Assembly: GCA_951406725.2 (NCBI GenBank)
Contig: OX597828.1
Coordinates: 48,236,001-48,300,000, forward strand
DNA: 64,000 nt
Direction: 5' to 3'
DNA from: Octopus vulgaris
Taxonomy: Eukaryota
The position numbers and the translations under genes are program-made. This document shows positions 29,765 through 58,608 of this stretch, piece after piece. The notes under the pieces were generated by a model. The model searched no databases and was not told where the DNA came from. It saw only the letters and a list, made by a program, of their open reading frames with translations. Position 1 is the first letter of the stretch; each line of letters starts with the position of its first letter.

Positions 29765-30790
29765 TCGTCTTTAAAACACATTTGAAGTATGTAAACCAGT
29801 CTTTTTTTTCACCTTTCATTTCATTTCATTTTTTCCCTCCTCTCTCTCTATATATATATATTTCTCTTACCTGTTTTTTCCCCCCTATTTTCTCAGCGGT
29901 GGTGTGCCCCAGCATGGCCGCGGCGGCCTTCTTGCTAAAACACTTTTAAGGATTTTAAGGGATTTATATCTCATCAAATTGCATACACTCACAGATACAG
30001 GCTATATATATATCCTTACAATATATATATATATATTTCTCTTACCTGTTTTTTTCTCTGCGGTGGTGCTCCAGCATGGCCGCGGCCTTCGGTCTAAAAC
30101 ATTTTTAAAGGATTTTAAGGGATTTATATCTCATCAAATTGCATACACTCAGATACAGGGTATATATATATATCCTTAGAATATATATATATATATATAT
30201 ACATATCCATATTTCCCCCCCCCCTCTTTTCTCAGCGGTAGTATTGCCCCAGCATGGCCGCGGCGGCCTTCGGCCTAAAACATTTAAAAAGGATTTTAAG
30301 GGATTTATATCTCACATCAATTTACATACACTCACAGATACAGGCTATATATATCCTCAGAATACATATATATATATATATATATATACATATCCATATT
30401 TCCTACATCGGTCTGTGTAAAACACGTTGAAGTATGTAAGCCAGTATTTTCTCCATTTCATTTCATTTACCTTCTTCTCTATTTCTCTCTCTCACACTTC
30501 CTCAAGATATACATACATGCACAGACACAGGATATATATACCCAATACCCAAGCTATATATATATATATATATATATGTCCATAATTCCTATAGCGATCT
30601 TTAAAATATACGAAATATGTAACCAGCCCAAGTCTTCCCCATCTCATTTCACTTCATTTTTTCCCCTCTATATGTTTCTCTTACCAGTTTTTTCTTTCCC
30701 CATCTTTTCTCTGACATTTCATCAAGATATATACACATACATATACATACATAGACGCAAGCTATATATATATATATATCTTTATATTGG
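29765..30790. repeat. compound tandem repeat (three ~175-bp units plus recurring flanking block)
   Basis: Unit GCGGTGGTGCYCCAGCATGGCCGCGG..GGATTTTAAGGGATTTATATCTC..CAGATACAGG x3; block AAAACAC..GAAGTATGTAA..TTTCATTTCA at ~29770, ~30415 and ~30600. Confidence 0.8.
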
Positions 30791-31121
30791 AATATATCTT
30801 ATAATTCCTACAACTGTCTGAAGTCTGTAGCTTGTTCCTTTTTTTCTTTAATTTTTGCCCTCCTGTCGCTTTCTTTATCCATTCTTCTTCATTTCTGAGG
30901 AGCTTTGTAGAAAAATTAAGGCGCCAGCTTCCTTTTTCTGTCTCTTCTGATTTCTTTTTTTTCCATTCTTCAGTGGAAAATTGATTCCTTTTAGAAAGGT
31001 AAATGAGGCTTTATATACATATATATATACTGTATATATATATATATATATGTTGAACATTTATATATGTTGAACGATAATGTGTATATTTAAAGCATAC
31101 ATAAATACATATCAAACAGAT

Positions 31122-31170
<49 letters not shown>

Positions 31171-31356
31171 GCTTTGCAGTTTATTGTATTTCTTAACAAT
31201 TGGGTGTAAAGATGAATGTATAGCGAGGAAAATTTAATTCTACATTTTCCATACATGCATTTCACATATATACACTCACACATTCGGGGGGTAAAAAACC
31301 AGGGACTTTTCAGGGGGGAAAATCTTTCTTGAAACGCATTTTTGTTGTACCCTCAC

Positions 31357-31920
31357 ATATATATATATATATATATTTGTGTATGTATACGTGTGTATAT
31401 ATGTATATATATTTGTGTGTGTATATATATGTATATATATTTGTGTGTGTATATATGTATATATATTTGTGTGTGTATATATATATATATATATATTTGT
31501 GTGTATATATATGTATATATATATATATATATTTGTGTAAGTACCGTATACGTGTGTATATATGTATATATATATATTTGTGTATGTATGTGTATATATA
31601 TATATATATAATTTGTATGAATACGTGTATATATGTATATATATATTTGTGTATGTATACGTGTGTATATATGTATATATATATATATTTGTGTATGTAT
31701 ACGTGTGTATATATGTATATATATATATTTGTGTATGTATACGTGTGTATATATATGTGTATGTATTCGTGTGTATATATGTATATATATATATTTGTAT
31801 GAATACGTGTGTATATATGTATACCTATATATATATATTTGTGTATGTATACGTGTGTATATATGTACATATATATTTGTGTATGTATACGTGTGTGTAT
31901 ATATTTATATATATATATAT
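31357..31920. repeat. compound TA/TG minisatellite (~30-34-bp unit)
   Basis: (TA)nTTTGTGTATGTATACGTGTGTATATATG repeated more than 15 times. Confidence 0.9.
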
Positions 31921-32474
31921 AAACCCAACAATTGTATTTACTGTTATATTCTTCGTTCTAAAACGCCGCCCGCTTTTGAAGTATTTTCATGCATCTCAGG
32001 GTTTGCCCCGATCTTGTTAGGAAATCTACCTATGTGCATATTGTATATATAATATATATAAATATATTCCCATGTAGTGGTACGCCCAAACTAAATACTA
32101 CCATATAAATAAATGTATGTATATATAATTTTCATTCTGTGTATTATAGATGTTTATATTGCCGATGATTGCAATATTTCCTTAATAATCATCGCCATTG
32201 CATGTGTTAAACATCTCCCTCTATACTTTTTGTTTTCCCCACCCGTTGGTTCTCCTTATTTTCCTTTTAATTTCCCTTCATTTCACATTTGCAAAAGGAA
32301 CGTATATATGTATGTTTGTTGACAGGAGGCAAGAAAAGGAATATCGTTAATATATGTATTATGTGTGCCTAGTTCCTTCTATCTGTGCTGCAAAACCGCA
32401 CGGCATTGGCCATTGATCCAGGTTTTCTGTGTAATTATATCAATTTCACTATATACGCTCGGGAAATTATTTCA

Positions 32475-32530
<56 letters not shown>

Positions 32531-35500
32531 GAGGCGATCCTTTACCATCGCCATATATATATATATATAATATCATTAACAGATATTACACGCTGATAGT
32601 TCCCACTAGCACATGGCCAGCTAGGTTCCTGTCGCCTTAATTTCACTCCGTGGCTTCACGTAATCACCCACACCCACCATAGGCCCTATATATACACATA
32701 TATATATATATATGTGTGTATGTATATATATAATGTATGTGTGTGTGTGTATAAGGATATTGCGCCTGGGTGTATTTTATTAGATCTAAAAGAATGAGTT
32801 AAATGGTTTTCCTCCATGAAAATGTGACTACTGACTGGAAAGGCGATGGTTAAAATTGTCTCATCTGATATATAGAAACTAAAAGAAAAAAAACCCCTTA
32901 ATCTTGTCTTTTTTTTTTTTAATGCTTTAAATCATTATTATCAACCCTTCATTGAAGTAAATCGTACGACATTTATCTTGGTCCGAAATCCCCCGATCAT
33001 TGCAAGAAAATCTTTATTTGAAAAACCTTCACTGAAGAAAAACTACTTCTTTCCTGCCCGAATCAGTCGTTTTACTATGTCACCTTTTTTATATTTTTTT
33101 TATTGCATTTATTTGTATCGTTGCTTTACGTTTTACTAAAAAAATTTTAATGAAAATATATAAATATTTAGTCTGAAAACCCGATTGCGGTTGGAACTGA
33201 ACTGATCAGGGAATCGTCCTTTTCTCTTCCTCAATCTCGCGTTACTTGCCGTTGCACCATGTGTTATTACGCAACAGAATATAGTCTGTGTAGCTTTCGC
33301 CATATATATATATATATATATATATATTTATTTATGTAGTATGCGTGTGTGTATATTTTGTTTTTGTTGCTAAGTCAGGCTTGTAGTTTCCTTATTTTGA
33401 TCACACAGTGATGATGCTGTAGTTTTTGGTCGCTGGTAATTTGATTGAAGAGATTTTTACGGGGAGGAACCGATAAGCTTCGCTTCGATGTGTGTGAGGC
33501 GGCGAGAGGAATAAGTCCCATTGAGTGCGTGGTGGTGGCGGTGGTAGTAGTGTGTATCGGGAGAGGAGGTTGGCTGTTCCAGTTTGTCTTCCTGCTATAC
33601 ATGTATTACTACGATCGGTGAACCGCCTCTCACTATCGCCATCGTTCCTCGATTTTTCAATCACAAAACTCTTGTATTTACTTTTTATTTTTATATTCGG
33701 AACCATCATCGTCCAACTTGTAGGATATTTGTATTCGCGTGTGCGCACACGCATATACGTGTGTGTATATATAAAAATGTGTGCGTGTCATGATTACAAA
33801 TTGGTGCCCCACCGGCCTCGTTTCTTTGTAACTTTCTGAAAAAAAGGCATATATTTTTAAAATGAAATTTGGCAGATACATTTTCATAGAAGTAAATTAC
33901 AATTATTTTGATAAAATTTTGAAATTTGTTTTTGGAGTTTCGGAGGATCGATCTTACTCCATCCAAGCTGTCTTCGTTACCACCACCAGTTTCCTAGTTT
34001 GAATATTTTTCTAAGGTTTATGTTTGAAACCTCATTGTGTAATAATCTCCACTCGCTTAGCACATTTCCACAAAATGTCATTTAATGACTTGCGAGCAAG
34101 ACTTCATTTTGTATATCCCCCGCCAAATAAAACACCCCTTTATTTTTTCCTGGGAGAAAATGGGTGGGGTGTCTTTCCTTGCAAAGTTTCTTTAAATATA
34201 AACTATAATTTTCAGAAAACTGGAACAGTCATTGAGGCCCTAAACTTTAGATGTGCCTTTGTGTTATGTGTATTAATTGAAATGAGTGGTTTCTTCGCTG
34301 AGTGATAAAACGCTAGTTTAAAATGGGTAGTAAGTTATCTAGATGAGTTTTTCTGTCCAGCTTTATCAATGGTCCTGCTATACCGGGTTTGCGGTTCCGT
34401 TGGTGGTTGGTGCACCAGACCATATCCTCTTGGAAACTTGTTCACATTTCAAATTGCTCCTGTCATATAAGACTGGCCATTCATTTATCCGTCAACGCTA
34501 AATATAGAAGCGACCAAACGTGTTTAATGGAATAACCATAGGTCAGATCTGATCGAGTTGATCTGTAGACATGGTCATTGTGTTTTCTCAATTGTATTAT
34601 CCCCTCTTGTTAATGCTTTATTATTATTAAAGATAATAGGAAATCATCTGAAGGATATTTTGCTGCTGTTTCTAGCGAATCCAGTGACTACATAGAGGCT
34701 TGTTCGATTTTTGATATGTAGCACTAGTTTTGGTTAGAAAGGACCGTTACCCGGGAGACCCCATTCTACCCATCGTATTCACAGTTAATAAAAGCAAGCG
34801 TGAATTGTTACGGGTTTTTTTATTTATTACACTAACACATGCACTGTGTGTATGTATAAAATCTGTAAACTGTGTATTTATTGGTCAAGTATAAAAGCCA
34901 GTTGTCTCTTTTTCATCCCGATCAGATAAGCATTGATTGATGGTCACATGTCTTTCAGATATCTTTTCCATCGTTTCTCGTTATTTAGTGGTGTAACAAC
35001 ATCGGCCTTTACTGCAGAGCAAGTTCGATCTTGCTGAGAGGACTGAATCTATTAGTAATGTAAAGCGTGCAAGTCTGTTGATTCGACTGGACTTCACTGG
35101 ATGTTGTTTGACTCCCAGGTCAGCACTTATCGAACAGCCTTATTGACTAAAGGCATTCCAAACGTAAAATGTTCCACATTTTTGTGTAACAGGAACTAGT
35201 GTTTCACACATCTAGACGAGAAGGTATGATGCGAGGATTTCGCTGCTATTTCTTGTAACGTCCAGTGACCACAAGAGAGTAGTCCTTCGTTAGCTCGGGA
35301 CCCTGCTTATTAAGACTTGATCTTCCTTTCTCACAAACATTATTTTTGATACCAGATGGTGTTTGGGTAAATGTTACCAGTATATTTTTTTACTTCAGTG
35401 ATTGCGAACTAGGAAGTGATATAGACTGAACTGTCGCAATAGTCCGTATATGTTTATATATACTGTGTTCATTGAATAGCAGGCCTGAAGGTGCAGTATT

Positions 35501-41027: not shown

Positions 41028-41043
41028 ATGGACTCGAAAGAAG
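41028..41043 (+). CDS. HNRNPK: hnRNP K coding exon 1 (MDSKE/G); exon begins 40923 with 5'UTR
   Basis: Polypyrimidine acceptor ttctcgttgtag ends at 40922; ATG at 41028; G|GTGAGT donor; phase 1 fits the next exon. Confidence 0.75.
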
Positions 41044-44000
41044 GTGAGTTCAGTTATAGTTTTTCATTGTTTTGTTTCTTTTCGATCTCCCTCACCTGTT
41101 AATTTCTTTAAGGTTTTCCCTTCTAATTGTAGGTGGGGTTACACTTTTTTTAATGTTATTTTTTATTTATTGTGGGTGGTGTGGCTATATTGTATATTGT
41201 TGGTGCAAATATTTTACAATATTCAAAATGTCCAGTTTAAACCATTTAATTGGTTGCTAAGTGTTGCCATGGCAGCTAGTCTGTATCACTAGCAGCAGCA
41301 GCAGCAACAGGTGTCATAAAGTACATGTTCCTTATTGATTTCTTTCCTTTTACATATTGTCTTCTGTATTTCTCCCCCTTCCATAGTGGCACCATGGCTG
41401 ACCCAGGTGAGAAGCAGCCTGCTTTATTATTCTTTAGTATACTTAAACTAGTATTTTCATAAGAAAGCATTAATATCATTATAGAAAATTTGTATTTTAT
41501 ATTCAAGTTTTATAAAACTATCTCTTAATATTTTAAAGCCGTCAATAATTTATGTAGATGTTATAGTTTCATTGTTATTTATTTATTTTTGTCTGTTAAA
41601 ATGTTCCATTATTTATAAGTGTGAGACATGTACATGTCTAGATTTATAAGCTATTATAATTTCAAATATACCAATGAATTAAATCAGGCTGCTCCATCAA
41701 TTAGTGTTAGGTGAATTTCTATGGCTTAACTTGTTGATTCGCTTCATCCCTTCCCTTTCTAATGATCCCATGTCATGGTTGCTTTAGCATTTGTGATTTA
41801 GATTATTAATTATCCTCCCCAACCAGCCTGTCCTACAGGCTGGTTTTTGAACAAAGCTTTTGCAGGATAGTATCGCCTACTCCTCCACAGCTAGGAGGAT
41901 GTGAGCAGGTGCTCATTGGTTGTTGCTAGGCCACTAAATATCAACAAAAAACTGGTGTATTGGGGTGTAAAGAGCCATTTAAGTAGTGCTACTAGTCAGG
42001 CTGGTTCATTCATTATCAGTTATTCCATTGGCTACATCACTATCATGCTGCTCTTTAGACCTGAAATGTTGTCTAACAAGTCCACAGGCAACCAGTTTTC
42101 ATCCCTCTCTGTCTTACTTTTATACACAACAAAAGAGATGATGATGGGAGTACATCAGTCTTGTTTAACTCCTACTTGAACACACACTCACACACATGCA
42201 GTGAAAACTAATGATGTTTTAACTGACCACTTTTTGGTCAATAGGTCACCTTGGGGTATGTATTTTCTTTCAGATGAATTTTTAAAATTTTATTTTTGTG
42301 ATATCTTTACATTTTTTTTTCTATTTTGTGTGTTTATCAACTTTTAACATCTCCAATTTTATTTCCCTTTGGCTATTTCTGTGTTGTATATTTCAAGTCC
42401 ACTTAATGCTTCTCTTTAACTGAAATTGAAGTAATTATATTTTATTGAAGAGGTGGGTGACTCTTATTAAATTTTGGCATTTATAAATTCTAAGTTACTC
42501 TTTAGTAGGACTGATAGTAATGGTTTTGTTATTTTCTTGCTCCTCATTCAGCAAATTAAGGGGTTCTGGTTATTTTTTTTTTTAAGGTTTTTTTTATATT
42601 AATATTTTTTCTCATTGCCCAAATTTACAAGAATTTTTATTTGTGAATCTGGTATTTTTCTTTATCATCCTATTGTTCCTTTCCAGTCTACTTCAGTTTA
42701 GTTCTATTTCTTCAGTGTGTGGGTTTTCTAGTTTTTCTACCTTTCATCTTAGTGCTAAAGATATACACTGTTGGATTATGTGGTTGCTAGGTGTGAGGAG
42801 TTGGTGTTCAATTGCATGTGCACACACAGGCACACTCTGGAATTGATTAGGTGTTACAAAAGAGATTAGATACATCTGAATTTAGTTTTAGGCATAGCAG
42901 TTACATCATTTTTAGCAGTTTGGCCAAAGAGACCAATGGAATAATTACGAGACTTAAAATTAGTACTGGGGTTGATTTGTTTCACCAAACCTTTCACTCT
43001 GATGCTTTAGCATGACCACACTCCAATAACTGAATCAAGGTAAAAGATAAAAGATGAAAAAAAAACTATCTTTTCATGTGTCATGTGTTGAGTCTGAATC
43101 TCCATCTCTTTGTTAAAGGCTTTGGTAAAACACTCTCTCTCTCTCTCCAGAATTATATTTGATATTCACTGTTAGGCATGTTGATTAATAATGGTAGTTG
43201 GTGTTCCACATGAAAAGAATTTTCATTTGAGTCTTCCTGAGTTTACTGTCAGTTCAGTTGGAGTTGAAAGCTGAGTTTAGCAGCCATTTTATCAGTTTTC
43301 TCTATCTTCATGCAAAAGAAGCAGGTACCTTCCTACTTGGCTGATTTACCTGTTGCTACCCTTTATTAATCTTAAAGGCACTCTTTTTACCTTTAGATTG
43401 ATTGCTGGGGCTATTGTAGGCATTTTTTTTCCATATGCAATTTCTAAAGATTTACTCTAGTAATTTGTAAAATTTTACTTACATGGATGGCTTGTGAAAA
43501 AATATTTCTGTAAATTAAACCCCCTAAATATTTGTTAGGGAGCTGCTTTTTATATATATACTTCTGTGTATTACAAATGAGACTAATGGGTTTTTGTTTT
43601 TCATTTTAATTGATTTTTCAACAGGCATAATGAAGCGGCCACTAGAACAAGAAGATGATGACTCATCGATGAAGAGAGCTCGTGGCAGTGGGCCAAAAAT
43701 TGAGTTAAGAATTTTACTTCAGAGCAAAGTAGGTTTCCAAAAAAAAACCCTTTTAAAACAATTCAATTTTGGGTCCTATTATTATTGCTGTAGTTTTTCT
43801 TCAATTAAAATGCATTTAAAAAAATTTTTTTTTTGGTGGGGTCTTATTGGATGTTTTCTGCAACACTTGCCCTTCTAATTTTGAGCAGTTGGTCTCCTTT
43901 CTTCATATGTCCATACCACTTATTGCATTAGCTTTTAACTTCTTTTTACTCTTGTGCTTTTCAGCAATACTCATAATTGCTGCTTCAAAATATCTTTCAA

Positions 44001-47000
44001 AAATGTGTGATAGTGTAACTGATATAAGCGAATAGGTTTAGAATAGTTTTCTTTGCAAGAAACGAACTAGATTTTTTTTTTTTTTTACCTAGATGTAGGC
44101 TTGCATTAATATCAGTTGATTTTTAATTTAACTAAACACACACACACACTCCCTCTCACCCACACTTGTTGAATAATAACAAAGTTTGTATTTGAAATGT
44201 CTTTCAGAATGCTGGAGCTATCATTGGCAAGGGTGGCAGTAATATTAAAAGATTAAGAGAACATGTGAGTATTTCTAATTCAACAGTTTTTCCTTTACCA
44301 TTTTCTCATATTATATTTTTTACTGTTTTTGTAATAATGAAAACAAAACTAGGCATTGCTTCTGCCTAGATGCTAGTTGCCATTTTATAAGAAGGTGACA
44401 TTAATTATTCTCTTGAGGGTGGGTGTGTTGTTATCAGTAAATATTAGTACCGAGTATTTTTTAAACTTTGTCTTAAAATAGAGATTAGAAATATATATCT
44501 ATCTAACTATTTATCACATTTTGTTGTAAATATTTCATCTTTGAAAGTAAAGAGATGATTATCCTTTATCTTCACCTTCATCGGAAAATGAACTTCGAAA
44601 GTAGTGAAGGTTGACCAGTTTGTTTCATTGTCCAAATTGGCCGTCAAATTTGACAGTTGTATCTAACAACTATTTATCATATATATATATATATATATAT
44701 GTGTGTATATATATGTATATATATATGTGTGTGTGTGTGCATATAAGTATATAAAAAGCACACCACATGAGATGCTATTTTCTGTTCTTACCCATCTTTT
44801 TTCTTTTTTTTTTAAGAAATTAATTCCCATATTGTATATTCAAACTGAATTGTTTTTCTTTTTTCTTTTTTTTTTTGTTTATATATTAAATTTTTTTTTT
44901 TTTTTTGTCATTTTAAATATAAATATTGAAATCTAGCTTAGTTTATTTGTATTTCATTTTTGAAACTGACATTGCTTTGTTTTATTTTTTCAAATTTTTT
45001 TTCCATACGGCTGCAATTCTGTTGTGATGTCTGGACTAAAATAAATAAATAAATAAATAAAATAAATGAATTTTCAAAATGATCTTTTTCACAAAGCATG
45101 CAAAATATTTAAGATCGAAACTAGTTTAAACTGTCTTTCTTATTTTTTTTTTTTCCTCCCCTATCTCTCTTTCTCTTTTTCTAACTTGTTTCTTGTGAAA
45201 TTATATGATCTTACTCCTGAACTTTTGATGATGATAGTTTTTTTCCCAAACTGGACTTCCAGTGCATGTCTAATAAATGATAAATGTAGCATCTGAACCC
45301 GACTATAGTGATTATAATAACTTGAAACGCTAAGCAGGAGTTGTAAAGGGGTCGAGAAGTAACCCCAGTCTTGCACAAAAGATGGAGGTGCATTTAACTT
45401 ATAGCTAATTCTCCTTCTTTATTCCTTTTAGGTATTATTTCTTTGAACAATAACCATGCATGCAAGAATGTTTTATTACTATGGAACAAAAAAAAAAAAA
45501 CTGTATTTATAAAAAGAAATTTTTTCAAATTCTGCTTGTTGACTGGGATGTTCCCCCAATCTGAAATGTAAGGCTTTGCACTGTTGTTCTTTTTATCAGT
45601 GGCAGCTGAATTCGACCAGCCAGCAGTTAATATCGTGAAGATATGTGTGAGGGGAAATGTAACTTTTCCTCTCTCTTTCTCTCTCTCACTCTCTCTCTCT
45701 CTCTCAGGAACAAAGCAGCTTCCTTTCTCTTTTATAACCCATTCCCGGGAACCTGTCTGTCTCTAAGAAGGGAAAAACTGAATTGAGGAGAAAGAGAACT
45801 AGTCAGAACGTTATAGGGGAAAACAAGACTTTCCCTGCAAGTATCTCTCAGTACTGCAAGTTTGTCTTAACTAATGCCTCCAGTTTTTATTCCACAGAAT
45901 TTCAGCCCCGTTGAAGTTGACTTGTTCAATGAATGTATGGATTCCATTTATATTACTTTTTTATGCCCATTGTGAAGATTTCTGGTAGTAATACTTTGTT
46001 ATATATATCTTGCCTGCCCCATTCTTCTTGCCCTTCCATGTCCACCAATGGCCCGTCTGTTGACCCTGAATATCCCTGACCCACGGAACGTCATCCCTGC
46101 CCGTCCGTCCGTCCATCCATGATGCAGTTCAAAGCAAGTGTTACAGTGCCCGATTGCACCGGCCCTGAACGGTATGCACCCTACTGCATTGTACTACTAC
46201 ACATTTTATTAATAACTGTTTCATAATGTTAAAAGCCCATTGTAAGTTCTTTTTTCTCCACACTGTTTTTACATTTTTTTCTTCCCACCCTTTCAAAACT
46301 TATCTGATGTCATTCACTCTTTAGTTCTTTTTTTTTACTTCTATTTAAATTTATTTTCCCACTCTTCTGTCACCCTCTAAATTTCTTTTTCTCTCTTTTC
46401 TCTTTCTCTCTCTCTCATTCTCTCTTATACCCAGTAAATGTAGCTAGCTAGTTAGGATCTTGGGAAATAACCACATACAGAGCTCAATAACTTGGAATCT
46501 GCATTACTCCCTGCTAGATGTATTAATATTCAGTCCATCCTGCCCAGCGATTCCCAGTCAACGACCAAATGTAAAATTGGGTACTTCATACTCATTATAG
46601 TTCCTTGTTACAGCTTCAAAAAATAAAATATTTAAAAAAATTGTTTATTTGCTTTTTCATCATGGGTTTCTATTTTCTTCTACTGCAATTCACTAAGTGA
46701 TCAACAACTTGACTTTTTTTTTTATACAATTCATATTGTAATTTAGATGTCTATCATAACTCTAATATAGTTTTCTTTTAATATGGAAGTGTTAAACCAG
46801 CAGCTATTATTACTATCCTCCAAGTTAGTGGATGACACTTGAAAAGTTGTATGTGCTCTGTGAATTGTAAAGATAGTTGTATATATTTATTCTTAAGTCA
46901 TTGAGTTCTGTATCAGTGGAGATCTCTGCTTAAAAATGAAAGGGCTTGGGTTTAAACAGCCTAACAATTACTTTGGGTATTTAGTGGTTTTTTATTTATT

Positions 47001-50000
47001 TTTAGTTTCATCTTCATGGTTTTTTTTTTAATATTAAATTCTCATACTCCAAATTCCCCTTGCTTAATTATATTTTTTAATAAAAAAAAAAAAAGTATTA
47101 ATGTATATTTATAAATATATTTTATTTTCCTTTTGAGATTTACTAATTTATTAGAACTTGCTTCATGTCACTTAAAGGAATACTTCATCACTATCAAAGA
47201 CCTAATTATCAAAGCTAATATTCTAGTAATTTAATTCATTTTATTCTAAGCTTTGGGTTTCTTCTGCACTTAACCATTCCCTCTTAATAGACAGCTTCAT
47301 ATGAAATGTGACACAGCTCAGAGTTTTAAATACCGTTTGGTTTCTATATATATATATATATCTCTACATAATATGAATTTGTTAAACAATAAAACTCCAA
47401 TGTTTGTAAGGACTAAATTCCAAGGTCTCTAGATGATATAGCTGCTGAAAGAGGTTAGAACTAGATTTCAGTAACTGAGTAAATGTAGTTCGTTCATCTA
47501 CACAGCATATCGTGAACGTTTAGTACAACAGTCAGTTAGTTTATTTTATTTTATTTTTATCCATTTGAACATTCAGATGGATTATGCACTTAGTTATTAA
47601 TCTGCATACCAGTCTAGTAAATTGGTATTTTTATTTTTAAAATTTTTTTAAAATAAAAGACATCTTGACTTATATTGTTTTCTACAGCTATAATTATTTT
47701 AAATCCTTTTTACATTTTACAGAATTTTGACAATTGGTGCAGACATAGATACAGCATTGGACTGTTTGGCAGACATTATACCATCCCTTGAAGATGTATG
47801 TATATTTCATGTAGTCTTTTGTAAAATATTGTCTATATTGAAGCTTCACTTTTCTGTGTTATTATTGGGATAAAAATCTAAGGCTCAATCTCTGTTGCAG
47901 TACAAACAGTTCTCCAATGATGAGTATGACTGTGAAATAAGAATATTGGTTCACCAGAGCCAGGCTGGTTGCATTATTGGTAGAGCTGGTTTTAAGATCA
48001 AAGAGTTGAGAGAGGTGTGTATCTTTCTTTGTTCTTCATTCTTTAGTGTCTATATTTTTCTCTTGCATTTTAACCCTATTTGAATGTTGAAGTTTTTTCT
48101 TACACGTCTCTATAAATATCAAATATTTCAGAAAACTGGAGCAAACATCAAGGTGTACTCAACCTGCTGTGCTCAGTCCACTGATCGTGTTGTGGCAATT
48201 TCTGGTCGACCTCCTGTGGTCATAGCTTGCATTAATGTTATTTATGAGCTTTTGGAAATGGTAAGACAATATATATTTTTTATGTTTTCTATTATATATT
48301 ATAGTAAATGTTTCAAAACTCTTCTCAAATACATAATTGTAAAGTAAATGACATGGTGTGAGGAACAGGCAACAGTTGGTGTATAATGGTTCCTCTCTCT
48401 TCTGTAGGCACCACCGAAAGGAGTTAACCAGCCATATGATCCACATAACTATGATGAGTATTACGCCCATGACTATGGTGGTTACACCATTGCAGAGGGG
48501 GGCCGTGGTAAACTACCTAGGGGTGCCCCGCCACCACCACCACGAGGAGGTGTCTCTCCATTGATGAGCCCACAGATAAGAGGACGGTAAGTTAACTTTC
48601 CAGATTTATATATAATTAGACGCTAGCATAAATAGCATTGTTTTTAAAGTACTGTAGTATGTAGAAACTTAAGATCTTTGATCACTTTTCATATTTAAAT
48701 GCTGCATTTGAAAAACATACCTTCATAAAATATTCCCTAATTAATATATTAAGTCACCCATTTAGTTGACTTGCCTGAAAATTAAGGGAAATAATTCCCT
48801 CGTCCTTATTTCATGTATAAACTTCAAAAGTGTTAATTTTTAAAATTTATTTCATTATTTCATCTCTTAACCCTTCATCAAGTATTTGAAGTATTTTCTT
48901 CATTGTATCATTTTTACTTCCCATTTATTTTATTCATTTGTTCTTCATCACACCTGAGTAACTTCATTAGTGTAATTAAGAAGTGTAGTGTTAATAAACA
49001 AAGCTATTAGCAAAGTGAGCCTTTGATCAAAACATAATTCCTAGCCACTACTTTTGATCCATAGATTTAATTTCCAGTAGCTCTATCCTAACCATTCATA
49101 AGATATTCGCATATTAGAGAAATGCAAGATCTTCTAAAGATACATATGTTTGTGTCAGTAATACTATATCTTAGAATATTGACTTAGAGATTCTCTGAAA
49201 AATTAAAATGGCTCAGTTTTTTTTTTCTTAGGTTTTGTTTTCTCTTTATTGTAAGTTAAGTATTAATGAAGTTTCACTCTTATCAATATTAAGGTTAATA
49301 TCAGTTTATGATATAGTTTTTATATGTAGATGTGAACTAGTTTGTGGCCACTGATTTTTTGGCAATTTTTATATAAACAATGATTTTCATTCTCTATATT
49401 TCATGCTTTGAAATGCTTAAATTTGAACTCCAAACTTTTGGATTCTGCTGTAAATAAGTCTGAATTGTGAAAATTTCAGAGGTACTGCTGGAGGAATGGG
49501 AGATATGGGCATGGGAGGGTCTGGCTCCATGAGCAGGGGTGGACTACCTAGCCTAACTGGAGGTAGAAACAACATGGGTGCTGCTCTCCCCTATGGCAGT
49601 GGTGGCGGTGGCAGTGGGGGCAGAGATGATGGCCTGCAAGAACTTGGAGGAATGAGGTAATAACACTCTATCATACTAGTGCTGTGCAGCAGAGATACCT
49701 CTAGAGAGGGCCCCAACCATCGTTAGATTATTCCTCTTGAACAATTTGTAAGTTTGTCAAAATTATTCTGTAGCCAAGTTCAATCTACAAACAAAAAACT
49801 TGCAAACTAATCAATGATATTTTAAAAACAAAACAAAACAAATTCAACAATCCAATTTTCATCACATTTTATTACTTTTAGTGGTTAAGTTTATTTCGAA
49901 AGCTTGTTGATTTTTTTTGCCTTTTCATTCAGTATTTGCCCAATTTCTCTTGAAGCTGTGCACTTACGAGTTGATAGTGGCCTTAAGTGTTCTAATTGTG

Positions 50001-50396: not shown

Positions 50397-53300
50397 GGTA
50401 AATATTTTATTAGTTTCTCATTATCTCATAATGTTCCATGTTGTAGCTATTATTTCATTTCTAGTTCCACATTTATTTCAAATCTGTACTTTATAAATAT
50501 TAATCGGCCAAATGTTTCAATAATTTCAGGAATGCCATGAATGGCAGCATGGGTGCTCGTGCCGGGCGTGGAGGAGGTAAGTAAATTGCAGATTCTCTCA
50601 AACTCTTCAGCATTATTACTTTCTCTTTCATCAACATTTTCCTAAAATGTTCCCTTTTTTCCCTCCTCCCCTTTCAGATAACAGGTTTGGCAATCCTGCA
50701 AGAGGAAACAGTGGCCAAGGTTTCTATGGTGGCCAGCAAAACTTTGCCCAAGACAGTATGGTAAGTTACTTCAGTTATTAACTTTGTGATGATTCAGATG
50801 AAATATTTTGAGATATTATTACCCCTCCTTTTTTTTTTCCTTCCAGGGTGGTATGGGAAATCAAGGGATGATGTTTGGTATGGAACAGACTACAACCACA
50901 CAAGTAACCATTCCCAAGGAGGTAAGTTTCATTCCATTAGTTTCGCTGTACTTAAAAATTTTGCTAGAGTATTCTTAAAAAGAGCCATGTGTAATTTTGA
51001 ATTTTGTCCCTTTTGTTTCTCCCTCCATTTAGCTTGCTGGTGCCATTATTGGCAGATGTGGAACTCGCATTACTGATGTGCGGCGCCAGTCTGGAGCCCA
51101 AGTGGTTATAGATGAAGCCCTTCCTGGTTCCAGTGATCGGATAATTACTATCACAGGAACTCAAGAACAAATTGATGCTGCACAGTTTCTCTTGCAGAGC
51201 AGGTTAGTTGAATGTCATGTAAAGACTTGGTCTTTTTCTCCTCTTTGTTTCTCCTCTTTCCTCTCTTCTATTCCTCATTGCATTGCATTCTGTTGGTTGT
51301 AAACAAAAGAGACACTAATGCCTTGATGAGAAATTGTATTAGCTATCTGTACCTTCATCTTCCATTACTCACATGTACTAACCTGTTTTTTTAGTGACAC
51401 TAAAACTTTTTACTACTGTTACTAAAAGTAAATCCAGTGCACGAAGAATTAATTCTATAGAATGGTTGCCACTTGATTTCCCATCCTCTCGTAGGAAAGC
51501 TTTAATTATTGATACATTATATCAAAAGGAATTTGCTATTTGGTTAATTTGATAATTGCATCTTTATCTAATTGTTGGTCCATTTAGGATTTACACAGCA
51601 TAAATTAGTATAGTTTTTATTTAGTAAGCTAGCAAAATGTATAATATATGCCAGAGAGAGAAGTGTAGGTTCAGTTTGAACACCTTTAGAAAAACTAAAC
51701 ACTAAGATAAGAGTGGTAACAAGTATTACAAATTCTCATTTATCCAATGTAAGGAAAAAAACAAAGCTTCGTTTTATTGATATCTTTTTTTTATACAGTT
51801 AGAAAGTCTGTTAACTTTTGGAATCTAAATTCTTAGTTTAAATGTCTTTTAAATAAAGAAAAATATTAACAGATGTATAAATCGAATTTATTTCTTAAAA
51901 TCTAAATGTGTGTTATTGTGTTACATTGTGAAGTAAGGGAGTGTTTCCTCTAAAGATTAATGTTCTTGTTGTAGCCATTACTTTTTCACAAAGTAGCTTT
52001 AGGTTTAAAATTTTGATGGTACCAGTTTAATGGGTGTGGTTAAGGCTTTCTTGGTTAGCATTGGGTGGCATCTGGTGGCTATTGTCGATGATGTGCATGA
52101 GACATTGGTGATGGGATTTGGCTTGTAACTAACCTTTGGCACCCATGGTCTGGAAGACTAATGAATTTTGTTGTTGTGTAGTGTGAGAACAATGAATCAT
52201 TATCTTCCTGAACCATGGATGTAAGTAGCAGCAACACCAGCTCTTGCTCATCCCTATCCTCTTCTCCCTTCCCTCACAACTGCCACTCATTCGATTGACC
52301 CCCTCCTGGATCCCTTGTTGATGGCTGCCCACCACTGCTGCTTTGCTAACCTTCAGCTCTGTTTCTGCTGCTGCTACTATTGTCATTACTACTACTATTA
52401 CTACTGTTTGCTACTATTATTATTATAACTACTACTACTATTGTTATAACCACTATCCAGAACTGGTACTGTGATTGGCATGTTACAAACTAATTTTTAT
52501 TTAATATTTTTAAATGTAAAATAATGAAATGTTTAAATGTGCATGACATGTTTACAGAGCGAAATTACGGTGAAAACTGAAGCAACTTGTTGGAATCGGT
52601 TTAGAATTCTTCCTAAATTTTAGATTTCAATTTTAGGAAAGTTTCCATGCGTCCTTGGTATAAATTATTATATTCTAATAATTGATTTGACATACAAAGT
52701 TAATAATTAATACACGTGTTGATTAAATGTCTTGTGATTTGTTGCCCTATGTGTTAGGTTTGTGTTGAAACTGGAGATAAATTCTAATTAAGGTCTTTAG
52801 GAAATATTTAAGTCAGGAAGTATAAATACGTACATAGCTGAAATTTAAAAAAAAATTATCTACAATAGCTACTGTCAGTGTGGGTGCACATTGATGGGAA
52901 ACCTAAGTATGAAATATACTAAGTTACATGAATTGCAGGATAACACTCCTTTCTATTATAGGCACGAAGCCTGAAATTTTGGGGTAGGGGTTAAGTTGAT
53001 TATATCAACCCCAGTGCACAACTGGTACCTATTTCATCAACCCTGAAAGGATGAAAGGCAAAATCAACCTCAGTGGAATTTGAACTCAGAATGTAAGGAC
53101 AGATGGACAAAATGCTACTAAGCATTTTTTGCCTGGCATGCCAACGATTCTGCCAGCTCACTGCCTTCTAGCAGGATAATAACAGTTGTTTACTGGAGAA
53201 CAATTCTGCAACATTGCAACTCTTATACAGCATATTCTTTCATGGCAGCCTGGTTTTTGTTTTTTCTTCTCTGGCTGTAAATGGCAAGCAAGTAGAAAGT

Positions 53301-57470: not shown

Positions 57471-58384
57471 GTACTGTTGCTCAATCTCTCTCGTGAGATT
57501 TACAAATAGTAATTTTCTAATCATGAAAATTGTTCAAACTGAAGTCCTTGAGTGACACATTTTTCCATTCAAGTCAATACAGAATTATAGATAGTAATTA
57601 TGGACTTTCGATTTACTGTCGGCTGACTTTTGGCCAACCCTGTGTATTCCAGCTGGTTCTGATTTTTGTGGGTTACCATTTAAATAATGTTTGTCTTATG
57701 ACAAGAATTGTAGCTTTTGGGGATTTTCAATTCCAAAAAAAACGTTGGAATTCTGTTCTGTTCCTAGCTAAGAAGGGCCCACTGATGGCCCCTTTTTATA
57801 TTTTGGTGTAACAACATTAATTTTCCATGAAATGTACATGAATGTTGATTTGTCAACTACACGCTCCGACTGGGGTTACCCCTGCAGCAAGACACCTGTT
57901 TGTCACTGTATCATAATCTGATCTCTCATCACCTGGCACAAAACCACTCCCTTTCAGTTGAGGTGTTTTGCAAGTTATTTGGTGTCATTGGTAGTGCTAG
58001 TGCCTCATATAAAGCACCTAGTGCACTGTAAAGTTTCGGGCATCAGGAAGAGCATCCAGCCATAGAAACCATTCTAAAGCAAACAGAGCTTAGTGCAGTC
58101 ATACAGCTTGCTAGCTCCTGTGAAACTGACCAATCTTTTCCAGCATGGAAAACTGGTTAAATGATGAGCAGACAGCCTAATCTTTTATTTTAACATCCAC
58201 TTTTCCATGGTGTTGACAAGACTTTGGGCTGGTTTTTAGGGTAGTACTTCCCATAGTCCTTGAAACAGCTCAATGGTTGAACAACTGTTCACTGAAGACT
58301 ACGTACTGGCCATGCAAGATTGGCTTGCACAGATAGGTATTTGAGACGTTTTCTACGACTGGATTCACCGCCTGTTGTCAACCC

Positions 58385-58555
<171 letters not shown>

Positions 58556-58608
58556 CAAAAGATCTTAAGTTCTTTAAAGATTTATTAAATAAGAGACAGT
58601 ACTTAGAT

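Follow-up and report, generated by a model that had tools for sequence, protein, structure and literature searches.

The closest described counterpart of the element reported here is exon 11 of PTBP1, the paradigm of a self-repressed exon that is coupled to nonsense-mediated mRNA decay (NMD) and spliced from a distant branch point (PMC1431707). In the published accounts (PMC1431707, PMC1940037) it is a short exon whose length is no multiple of three, it belongs to a gene that encodes an RNA-binding splicing repressor, and it is preceded by a long zone without AG dinucleotides that is filled with the protein's own type of motif, and its skipping leads to a premature stop. Exon 4 of the hnRNP K gene of Octopus vulgaris, the subject of this work, is alike in its length, its setting, its AG-free zone and the stop that skipping would bring, and its zone may likewise be filled with the protein's own type of motif; the exon and the unusual tract in front of its acceptor lie in a stretch of 64,000 nucleotides (G000:C15:48236001-48300000, hereafter the window) of the 2.8-Gb octopus genome. 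The two cases differ in that the octopus tract is built of GYCC and GCCC words rather than the UCUU-type pyrimidine tracts of PTBP1, in that skipping, NMD and self-binding are predictions here, and in that the octopus arrangement is kept across protostome groups, with turnover of the motifs and no alignable sequence.

PTBP1 exon 11 belongs with a wider set of exons with distant branch points, described in 2006 (PMC1431707). According to that report AG-free zones of at least 100 nt are found in 0.68% of human introns, with an enrichment of alternative splicing among the exons concerned, which are mostly regulated and vulnerable to AG-creating mutations anywhere in the zone. Octopus exon 4 and its homologues share with this class an AG-free zone, here of 137-396 nt, and, in nine of 10 taxa, a U-rich stretch towards the far end of it; unlike the class, they have a spacer that contains C and G and is rich in GYCC, rather than plain pyrimidine. 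HNRPK is absent from two supplementary files of that study (Gooding 2006, PMC1431707).

Two further systems concern the candidate ligands. hnRNP K is reported to be a direct competitor of U2AF65 at a 3' splice site (PMC3439897), as described for Snap25 exon 5a and Runx1 exon 6 (Cao et al. 2012), and an HNRNPK silencing map has been published (KATMAP, PMC13751310); both place C-rich motifs 5' of the repressed exon, and C-rich motifs also precede exon 4. Unlike in Cao et al. 2012, where the motif is TCCCT at most 50 nt from the acceptor, TCCC is depleted in the tracts studied here, pairs of TCCCT also stand at the acceptors of exons 11 and 13, and the proposed target is the protein's own gene. 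Cassette exons enhanced by alphaCP/PCBP, which are also KH-domain poly(C) binders, likewise have a C-rich acceptor in place of a U-rich one (Ji et al. 2016, PMC4797308), but their consensus YYYYC[U/A][C/G]CCY is nearly absent here, and since that pathway enhances inclusion it would give no negative feedback.

Autoregulation of hnRNP K was called open in a 2021 article (PMC8423707), and neither the element nor such a circuit is described in the literature that we searched, two reviews and one analysis paper included, although a description may exist in subscription journals or supplements. The kind of mechanism is already known from PTBP1; the locus would be a new case with an unusually deep conservation of its architecture. 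What it adds is a cis-element kept across distant invertebrate groups, together with a predicted skip junction and a predicted ligand, which makes the self-control of hnRNP K testable.

The acceptor of octopus hnRNP K exon 4

The gene lies on the plus strand of the window, where mapping of two octopus proteins by tblastn together with reading of the splice sites gave 14 coding exons whose joined frame stays open and translates into an hnRNP K protein. These two proteins, P0001 (Octopus vulgaris, 372 aa) and P0002 (O. bimaculoides, 435 aa), are named hnRNP K by their source databases and are both retrieved by the KH3-coding exon with 100% identity. KH_1 was matched three times in the encoded protein, giving three KH domains, and the best matches of KH3 were human hnRNP K chains (E 7e-26, as against 1.3e-14 for KH3 of PCBP2). 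As judged from these similarities, the gene is an hnRNP K orthologue, closer to hnRNP K than to PCBP.

Exon 4 (46128-46171, plus strand), which reads TTCAAAGC...CTGAACG, is 44 nt long, ends in the CG of an Arg codon and is flanked by cag and gtatgc, with the donor ACG/gtatgc. The last AG before its acceptor is at 45987-45988, leaving an AG-free zone of 137 nt (45989-46125) in which 3.7 AG would be expected from the composition and none is present; at the other 12 of the gene's 13 acceptors the corresponding zone measures 16-65 nt. The base composition sets this acceptor apart as well. Its last 50 nt hold 22 C and 10 T, compared with 5-18 C and 17-31 T elsewhere in the gene, and its last 100 nt hold 41 C, compared with 9-29. 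The exon 4 acceptor is thus an outlier among the 13.

Within the window the tract is the only site with seven or eight runs of at least three C per 120 nt, and one of three plus-strand sites with at least 41 C per 100 nt. The ratio of observed to expected CpG is 0.78 in the tract as compared with 0.47 for the window. Of the 3718 AG-free gaps in the window, 11 reach at least 137 nt, and by inspection several of the others among these 11 are simple repeats; long TA, TG and TC microsatellites at 30100-32600 and 58340-58560 account for most of them. The tract itself is single-copy, with one match in its own 2.8-Gb genome, and a repeat or transposon origin was rejected on this ground.

Skipping of exon 4 would join exon 3 (44208-44264, 57 nt, coding for KH1) to exon 5 (47723-47795, 73 nt) at the predicted junction 44264->47723. 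When translated in the skip frame, exon 5 reads through to a TGA at 47789-47791, more than 50 nt 5' of the last exon junction and with nine junctions downstream, so that skipping shifts the frame and introduces a premature stop as it does in cassettes of alternative splicing coupled to NMD. A preliminary description of this stretch had proposed a 44-nt KH1 exon preceded by some 137 nt without AG, a C-rich acceptor where the others are U-rich, retained CpGs, and a frame shift with a stop in the next exon far upstream of later junctions; each of these points was borne out by the figures given above.

A minor feature of the intron end may be noted here. In octopus (46119-46127) and in five of the further loci described below (L013, L015, L017, L026 and L027), which together make up four of ten independent groups, the intron ends in (C)ATGATGCAG or CACGATGCAG, placing an ATG in frame with exon 4 directly before the acceptor; the others lack it.

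Conservation of the AG-free architecture and the predicted branch point

To look beyond octopus we used the letters of the exon only: its conserved segment, running from the Ala up to the donor GT, was back-translated, and the resulting degenerate pattern was run over metagenome contigs. The pattern found 21 animal hnRNP K loci. A looser version of it gave 0 matches in 596 Gb of prokaryote contigs, used as a control, showing that chance does not account for the 21 loci. Each of them encodes A(S/T)VTVPD..GPE and then the donor, and in 19 of them an AG stands exactly where a 44-nt exon requires it, the remaining two (L022 and L031) being cut at most 25 nt from the exon. Near-identical contigs were collapsed to 11 sequences, which were treated as 10 independent groups by pairing L013 with L017 and L015 with L027.

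The best matches of the other exons on these contigs were proteins named hnRNP K by their sources. Gastropod and bivalve proteins were the best matches for L012-L015, L017, L018, L020, L026 and L027, and insect proteins for L025 and the L019 group, the latter showing the arthropod form 'CPGPER' and an insect-type 'SIIGKGG'. The labels mollusc-like and insect-like are inferred from these best protein matches.

In all 11 sequences the homologous exon is preceded by an AG-free zone of 165-396 nt, and in all 11 no other AG-free gap of the same locus is as long (rank 1 of 84-383 gaps). From the composition 6.4-14.9 AG per tract would be expected and 0 were observed, while GA occurs 6-17 times and CT, which is AG on the other strand, 13-34 times per tract. 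The tracts were also C-rich and carried the GYCC array described below in all 11 further loci, indicating constraint on the flanking intron; the preliminary description had listed a non-conserved C-rich tract among the findings that would refute its proposed switch, and the tract is kept throughout. The elevated CpG recurs too: in all 11 loci that extend at least 111 nt upstream, and in octopus, observed over expected CpG in the tract exceeds that of the remaining locus (0.78 vs 0.24 for the rest of the gene region in octopus).

An alignment of the intron ends across the taxa, a comparison of the kind suggested in the preliminary description, gave a divided answer. The AG-free, C-rich architecture is kept, but only the exon and the splice sites align between taxa; base-level alignment of the tracts failed everywhere else, placing the constraint on the architecture and not on aligned bases. 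Arrays of motifs conserved in this manner, as architecture without alignable sequence, would be missed by alignment-based conservation scores.

Where the branch point lies was assessed from the same tracts. Avoidance of AG on the sense strand only marks the stretch that runs from a branch point to the 3' splice site served by it, and the branch point is probably at the distal (5') end of the AG-free zone, beside the U-rich stretch. In octopus the 5' edge of the zone (45985-45994, plus strand) has the AG at 45987-45988 followed by TAATAC, a predicted distant branch-point region some 135 nt from the acceptor, and the U-rich stretch TTTGTTATATATATCTTGCC...TTCTTCTTGCCCTTCC (45992-46038) is a candidate for its polypyrimidine tract. 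The T-richest 20-nt window lies within the first 0-74 nt of the zone in nine of 10 taxa, and starts at +3 in octopus. A YTAAY word occurs within -12 to +42 of the zone's 5' edge in five of 10 taxa, compared with about 2.5 expected (0.28 per window), and in three taxa such a word (CTAAC, CTAAT or TTAAC) stands 6-7 nt before the edge AG, a spacing at which this AG would be too close for use.

The preliminary description had instead pointed to branch-like TGAC motifs inside the octopus tract. They are present, as TTGAC at 46060 (A at 46063) and CTGAC at 46076 (A at 46079), together spanning 46060-46080 on the plus strand, and they are possible proximal branch points; across taxa CTGAY (z 2.0) and TGAC (z 1.2) are weakly enriched, and the distal position is the one predicted as the more likely.

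The GYCC array and its candidate ligand

Motifs were counted in the tracts of 10 taxa (2481 nt) and compared with dinucleotide-preserving shuffles. The most enriched 4-mers were GTCC (49 observed, 15.4 expected, z about 9) and GCCC (52 observed, 22.5 expected, z about 7.5), which combine into GYCC (101 observed, 38.3 +/- 5.1 expected, z 12.2). The reverse complement GGRC was depleted (4 observed, 13 expected), and so were CCCC (18 vs 54 expected) and TCCC (19 vs 32). GCCC was present in all 10 taxa, as was TGGYCC (UGGYCC in the RNA), whose reverse complement occurred 0 times. The preliminary description had proposed an element of C-runs or generic poly(C); the C-richness holds, but the repeated unit is GYCC, with CCCC and TCCC depleted.

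The density of GYCC per 50 nt is 1.6-3.2 from -200 to -1 and 2.0 in the exon bin, falling to 0.1-0.5 in the other bins between -600 and +400, and the signal ends exactly at the exon donor. The exon takes part in it, with 1-3 GYCC in each of 12 homologous exons and the Gly-Pro codons written as GGYCC in 11 of the 12. In octopus the intronic array (46016-46114, plus strand) consists of eight motifs, GCCC starting at 46016, 46030, 46051 and 46099 and GTCC at 46040, 46103, 46107 and 46111, to which exon 4 adds two GCCC (46148 and 46162); GCCC and GTCC each reach 29.2 per kb in the tract and 1.2 per kb elsewhere in the gene. Part of the octopus array is a 21-nt tandem unit, ATCCCTGNCC, at 46072 and 46093.

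A second motif found on the sense strand only, CCAATGG, occurs in five of 10 taxa where 0.3-0.44 would be expected: octopus (46045-46051), L014, L018, L019 and L026. Its reverse complement CCATTGG was found 0 times in the tracts, and AATGG has a z of 5.5-6.

CCAATGG, the common words of the CCGCCC type and the CpG enrichment of the tracts would also suit an element acting at the DNA level, such as a CpG-rich promoter or enhancer that lies inside the gene and carries CCAAT and GC boxes. We consider this highly improbable, as every signal is strand-specific (GYCC 101 vs GGRC 4, CCAATGG 5 vs CCATTGG 0, AG 0 vs CT 13-34 per tract) and the signal stops exactly at the exon donor. Taken with the conservation described above, these comparisons indicate that a conserved splicing element of the sense strand very probably exists.

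Several other origins of the signal were rejected. An extension of the coding exon was discarded, there being no reading-frame preference upstream, and the NOVA-type motif YCAY was set aside with a z of only 2.2. Predicted folding does not set the tracts above shuffles (z -1.5 to +3.1 for 12 tracts, -0.90 in octopus), arguing against a conserved RNA structure and fitting a platform for single-strand binding. In the predicted octopus fold a stem of about 9 bp, formed by 46119-46128 with 46183-46191 (UGAUGCAGU/ACUGCAUUG), brackets exon 4; given the z of -0.90 for the whole fold, it is probably due to chance. A known RNA family was likewise rejected: an Rfam E-value scan of 44300-47700 returned sub-threshold matches only, at a TA/TG microsatellite and at 46458-46513 on the minus strand, and those to mir-297, mir-1277 and mir-3149 at 44672-44749 (best 37.6 bits against a gathering score of 90) are a low-complexity artefact of the TA/TG repeat.

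The explanation that we favour, tentatively, is that exon 4 is a distant-branch-point exon repressed by hnRNP K itself, diverting transcripts into an NMD-prone mRNA and so closing a negative feedback loop. The predicted order of elements is distant branch point, U-rich tract, GYCC spacer and acceptor. When in surplus, hnRNP K would occupy the GYCC array and exon 4; the exon would then be skipped, the effect being taken as repression rather than activation; and the frame-shifted mRNA would be lost to NMD, lowering the output of hnRNP K. Self-repression, skipping in vivo, the distant branch point and the NMD step are predictions.

That hnRNP K is the ligand of the array we regard as about an even chance. 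In its favour GCCC clusters beside exon 4 and its homologues (52 vs 22.5 expected), and GCCC is the reported motif of human hnRNP K in cross-linking and immunoprecipitation (CLIP) and in RNA Bind-n-Seq (RBNS) (PMC7498318). The array also lies in the hnRNP K gene itself in every taxon in which it was found.

Several observations weigh against self-repression by hnRNP K. Half of the array is GUCC, while UCCC, the classical KH3 motif, and long C-runs are depleted; to our knowledge GUCC is not a reported hnRNP K motif, and we know of binding preferences for the human protein only. All annotated proteins recovered, from molluscs and arthropods, contain the exon 4 peptide, and the peptide of the skip frame (a 40-aa query from 47669-47788) was found in no database protein of at least 71 aa, a negative of little weight since isoforms subject to NMD seldom get assembled. 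The branch-point position is a prediction, YTAAY stands at the zone edge in only five of 10 taxa, and the taxon of most contigs is assigned from best protein matches only.

The share of GUCC and the depletion of UCCC mean that another GYCC-binding protein could be the ligand. The array would then be a conserved splicing platform for a KH protein of the PCBP type, or for a binder of GYCC or UGGYCC, that would control or support the inclusion of exon 4, and would serve cross-regulation of hnRNP K output instead of feedback. GUCC (49 vs 15.4) and UGGYCC (10 of 10 taxa) are as enriched as GCCC, with CCCC and UCCC depleted; CCAATGG is a second sense-only motif in half of the taxa; and PCBP1/2 are described as acting on C-rich acceptors (PMC4797308). 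The alphaCP consensus YYYYC[U/A][C/G]CCY, however, occurs once in the 2481 nt of tract over 10 taxa and not at all in octopus, which lowers the case for a PCBP enhancer, and GCCC is a reported hnRNP K motif both in vitro and in CLIP, in an array placed in the hnRNP K gene of every taxon. Cross-regulation by another ligand is possible, if rather unlikely.

A further alternative is a constitutive arrangement without any switch, in which a very short exon is spliced from a distant branch point, AGs are purged from the zone by selection, GYCC acts as filler that prevents structure and competing signals in the spacer, and inclusion of the exon is constant. Every annotated isoform recovered does keep exon 4, the skip-frame protein is not on record, the tracts are both unalignable between taxa and unstructured, and the human exon seems to be a fragile one, given the cluster of several splice variants around it. 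Avoidance of AG alone, on the other hand, needs no 4-mer enriched at a z of about 12 on one strand, nor an extension of the motif into the exon through synonymous codons, and regulation is the rule among the known exons with distant branch points (PMC1431707). We consider the constitutive arrangement improbable, and return below to negative feedback by hnRNP K as our working explanation.

Human HNRNPK and other features of the locus

The preliminary description had held that vertebrate HNRNPK has the homologous short exon, and the human data agree: the human exon spans c.214-c.257, is also 44 nt long and has the same borders (variant names in PMC9606382, Table 1; genomic coordinates in PMC9001983). 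The size and borders of octopus exon 3 likewise match human c.157-c.213 (PMC7503209, PMC9606382). Variants reported in Au-Kline syndrome surround this exon, in NM_002140.4 c.213+5G>A, c.214-77G>A, c.214-35A>G, c.257G>A ('abnormal splicing') and c.257+5G>A (PMC9606382), and a splice effect of c.214-35A>G is reported, as relayed by papers citing that result.

This invites a bolder version of the feedback explanation, in which the AG-free GYCC array, with its distant branch point, would serve hnRNP K as a homeostat throughout the Bilateria, have an age of more than 500 million years and operate in human HNRNPK too, and would explain c.214-35A>G and c.214-77G>A as AG-creating variants within its zone; we hold this extension to be speculative and on the doubtful side. 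Its interest lies in dosage. Au-Kline syndrome is a haploinsufficiency, and a shortage of hnRNP K and a surplus of it are both harmful; a study of mouse muscle reports that absence and excess of the protein both impair function. If the architecture holds in vertebrates, AG-creating variants roughly 100-400 nt 5' of the exon would be candidate loss-of-function alleles, and the exon would be a possible handle for splice-switching oligonucleotides.

The other coding exons of the octopus gene, all on the plus strand, are exon 1 (ATG at 41028, end 41043), exon 2 (43625-43728), exon 6 (47901-48014), exon 7 (48132-48260), exon 8 (48408-48586), exon 9 (49480-49656, 177 nt), exon 10 (50530-50576), exon 11 (50678-50760, 83 nt), exon 12 (50847-50921), exon 13 (51033-51202, 170 nt) and exon 14 (start 55087). 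Exon 9, which is Gly/Met-rich, is a frame-preserving cassette, present in P0002 and not in P0001. P0002 also has four extra residues, DFST, that would need an acceptor 12 nt 5' of exon 2; the octopus window (43611-43625) has TG, not AG, at the place of this acceptor.

Two TCCCT words lie at most 30 nt from each of the acceptors of exon 11 (50651-50677) and exon 13 (51007-51032). These acceptors fit the rule of two copies within 50 nt (Cao et al. 2012) better than that of exon 4 does, which rules out TCCCT as a mark specific to exon 4, and exons 11 and 13 would each shift the frame if skipped.

Apart from the exon 4 tract, the window has five or six C-runs per 120 nt in one place only, at 52209-52371 in the last intron, of 3.9 kb. 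This cluster has no AG over 114 nt (52241-52354) and ends in the branch-point-like GCTAACCTTCAG, very near an AG; a donor-like word, GATGTAAGT, stands near 52219. The cluster may represent an exon used alternatively, or else another regulatory tract.

Finally, the octopus genome carries an intronless hnRNP K paralogue, likely a retrogene (L002; G000:C9:86275796-86279653). Its open reading frame (L002:1501-2586) encodes 361 aa, with 65% identity over residues 1-287, and keeps KH1 and KH2, including FKANITVPDCSGPER, the part homologous to exon 4, with no match to KH3. Having no introns, this copy would escape any control based on splicing.

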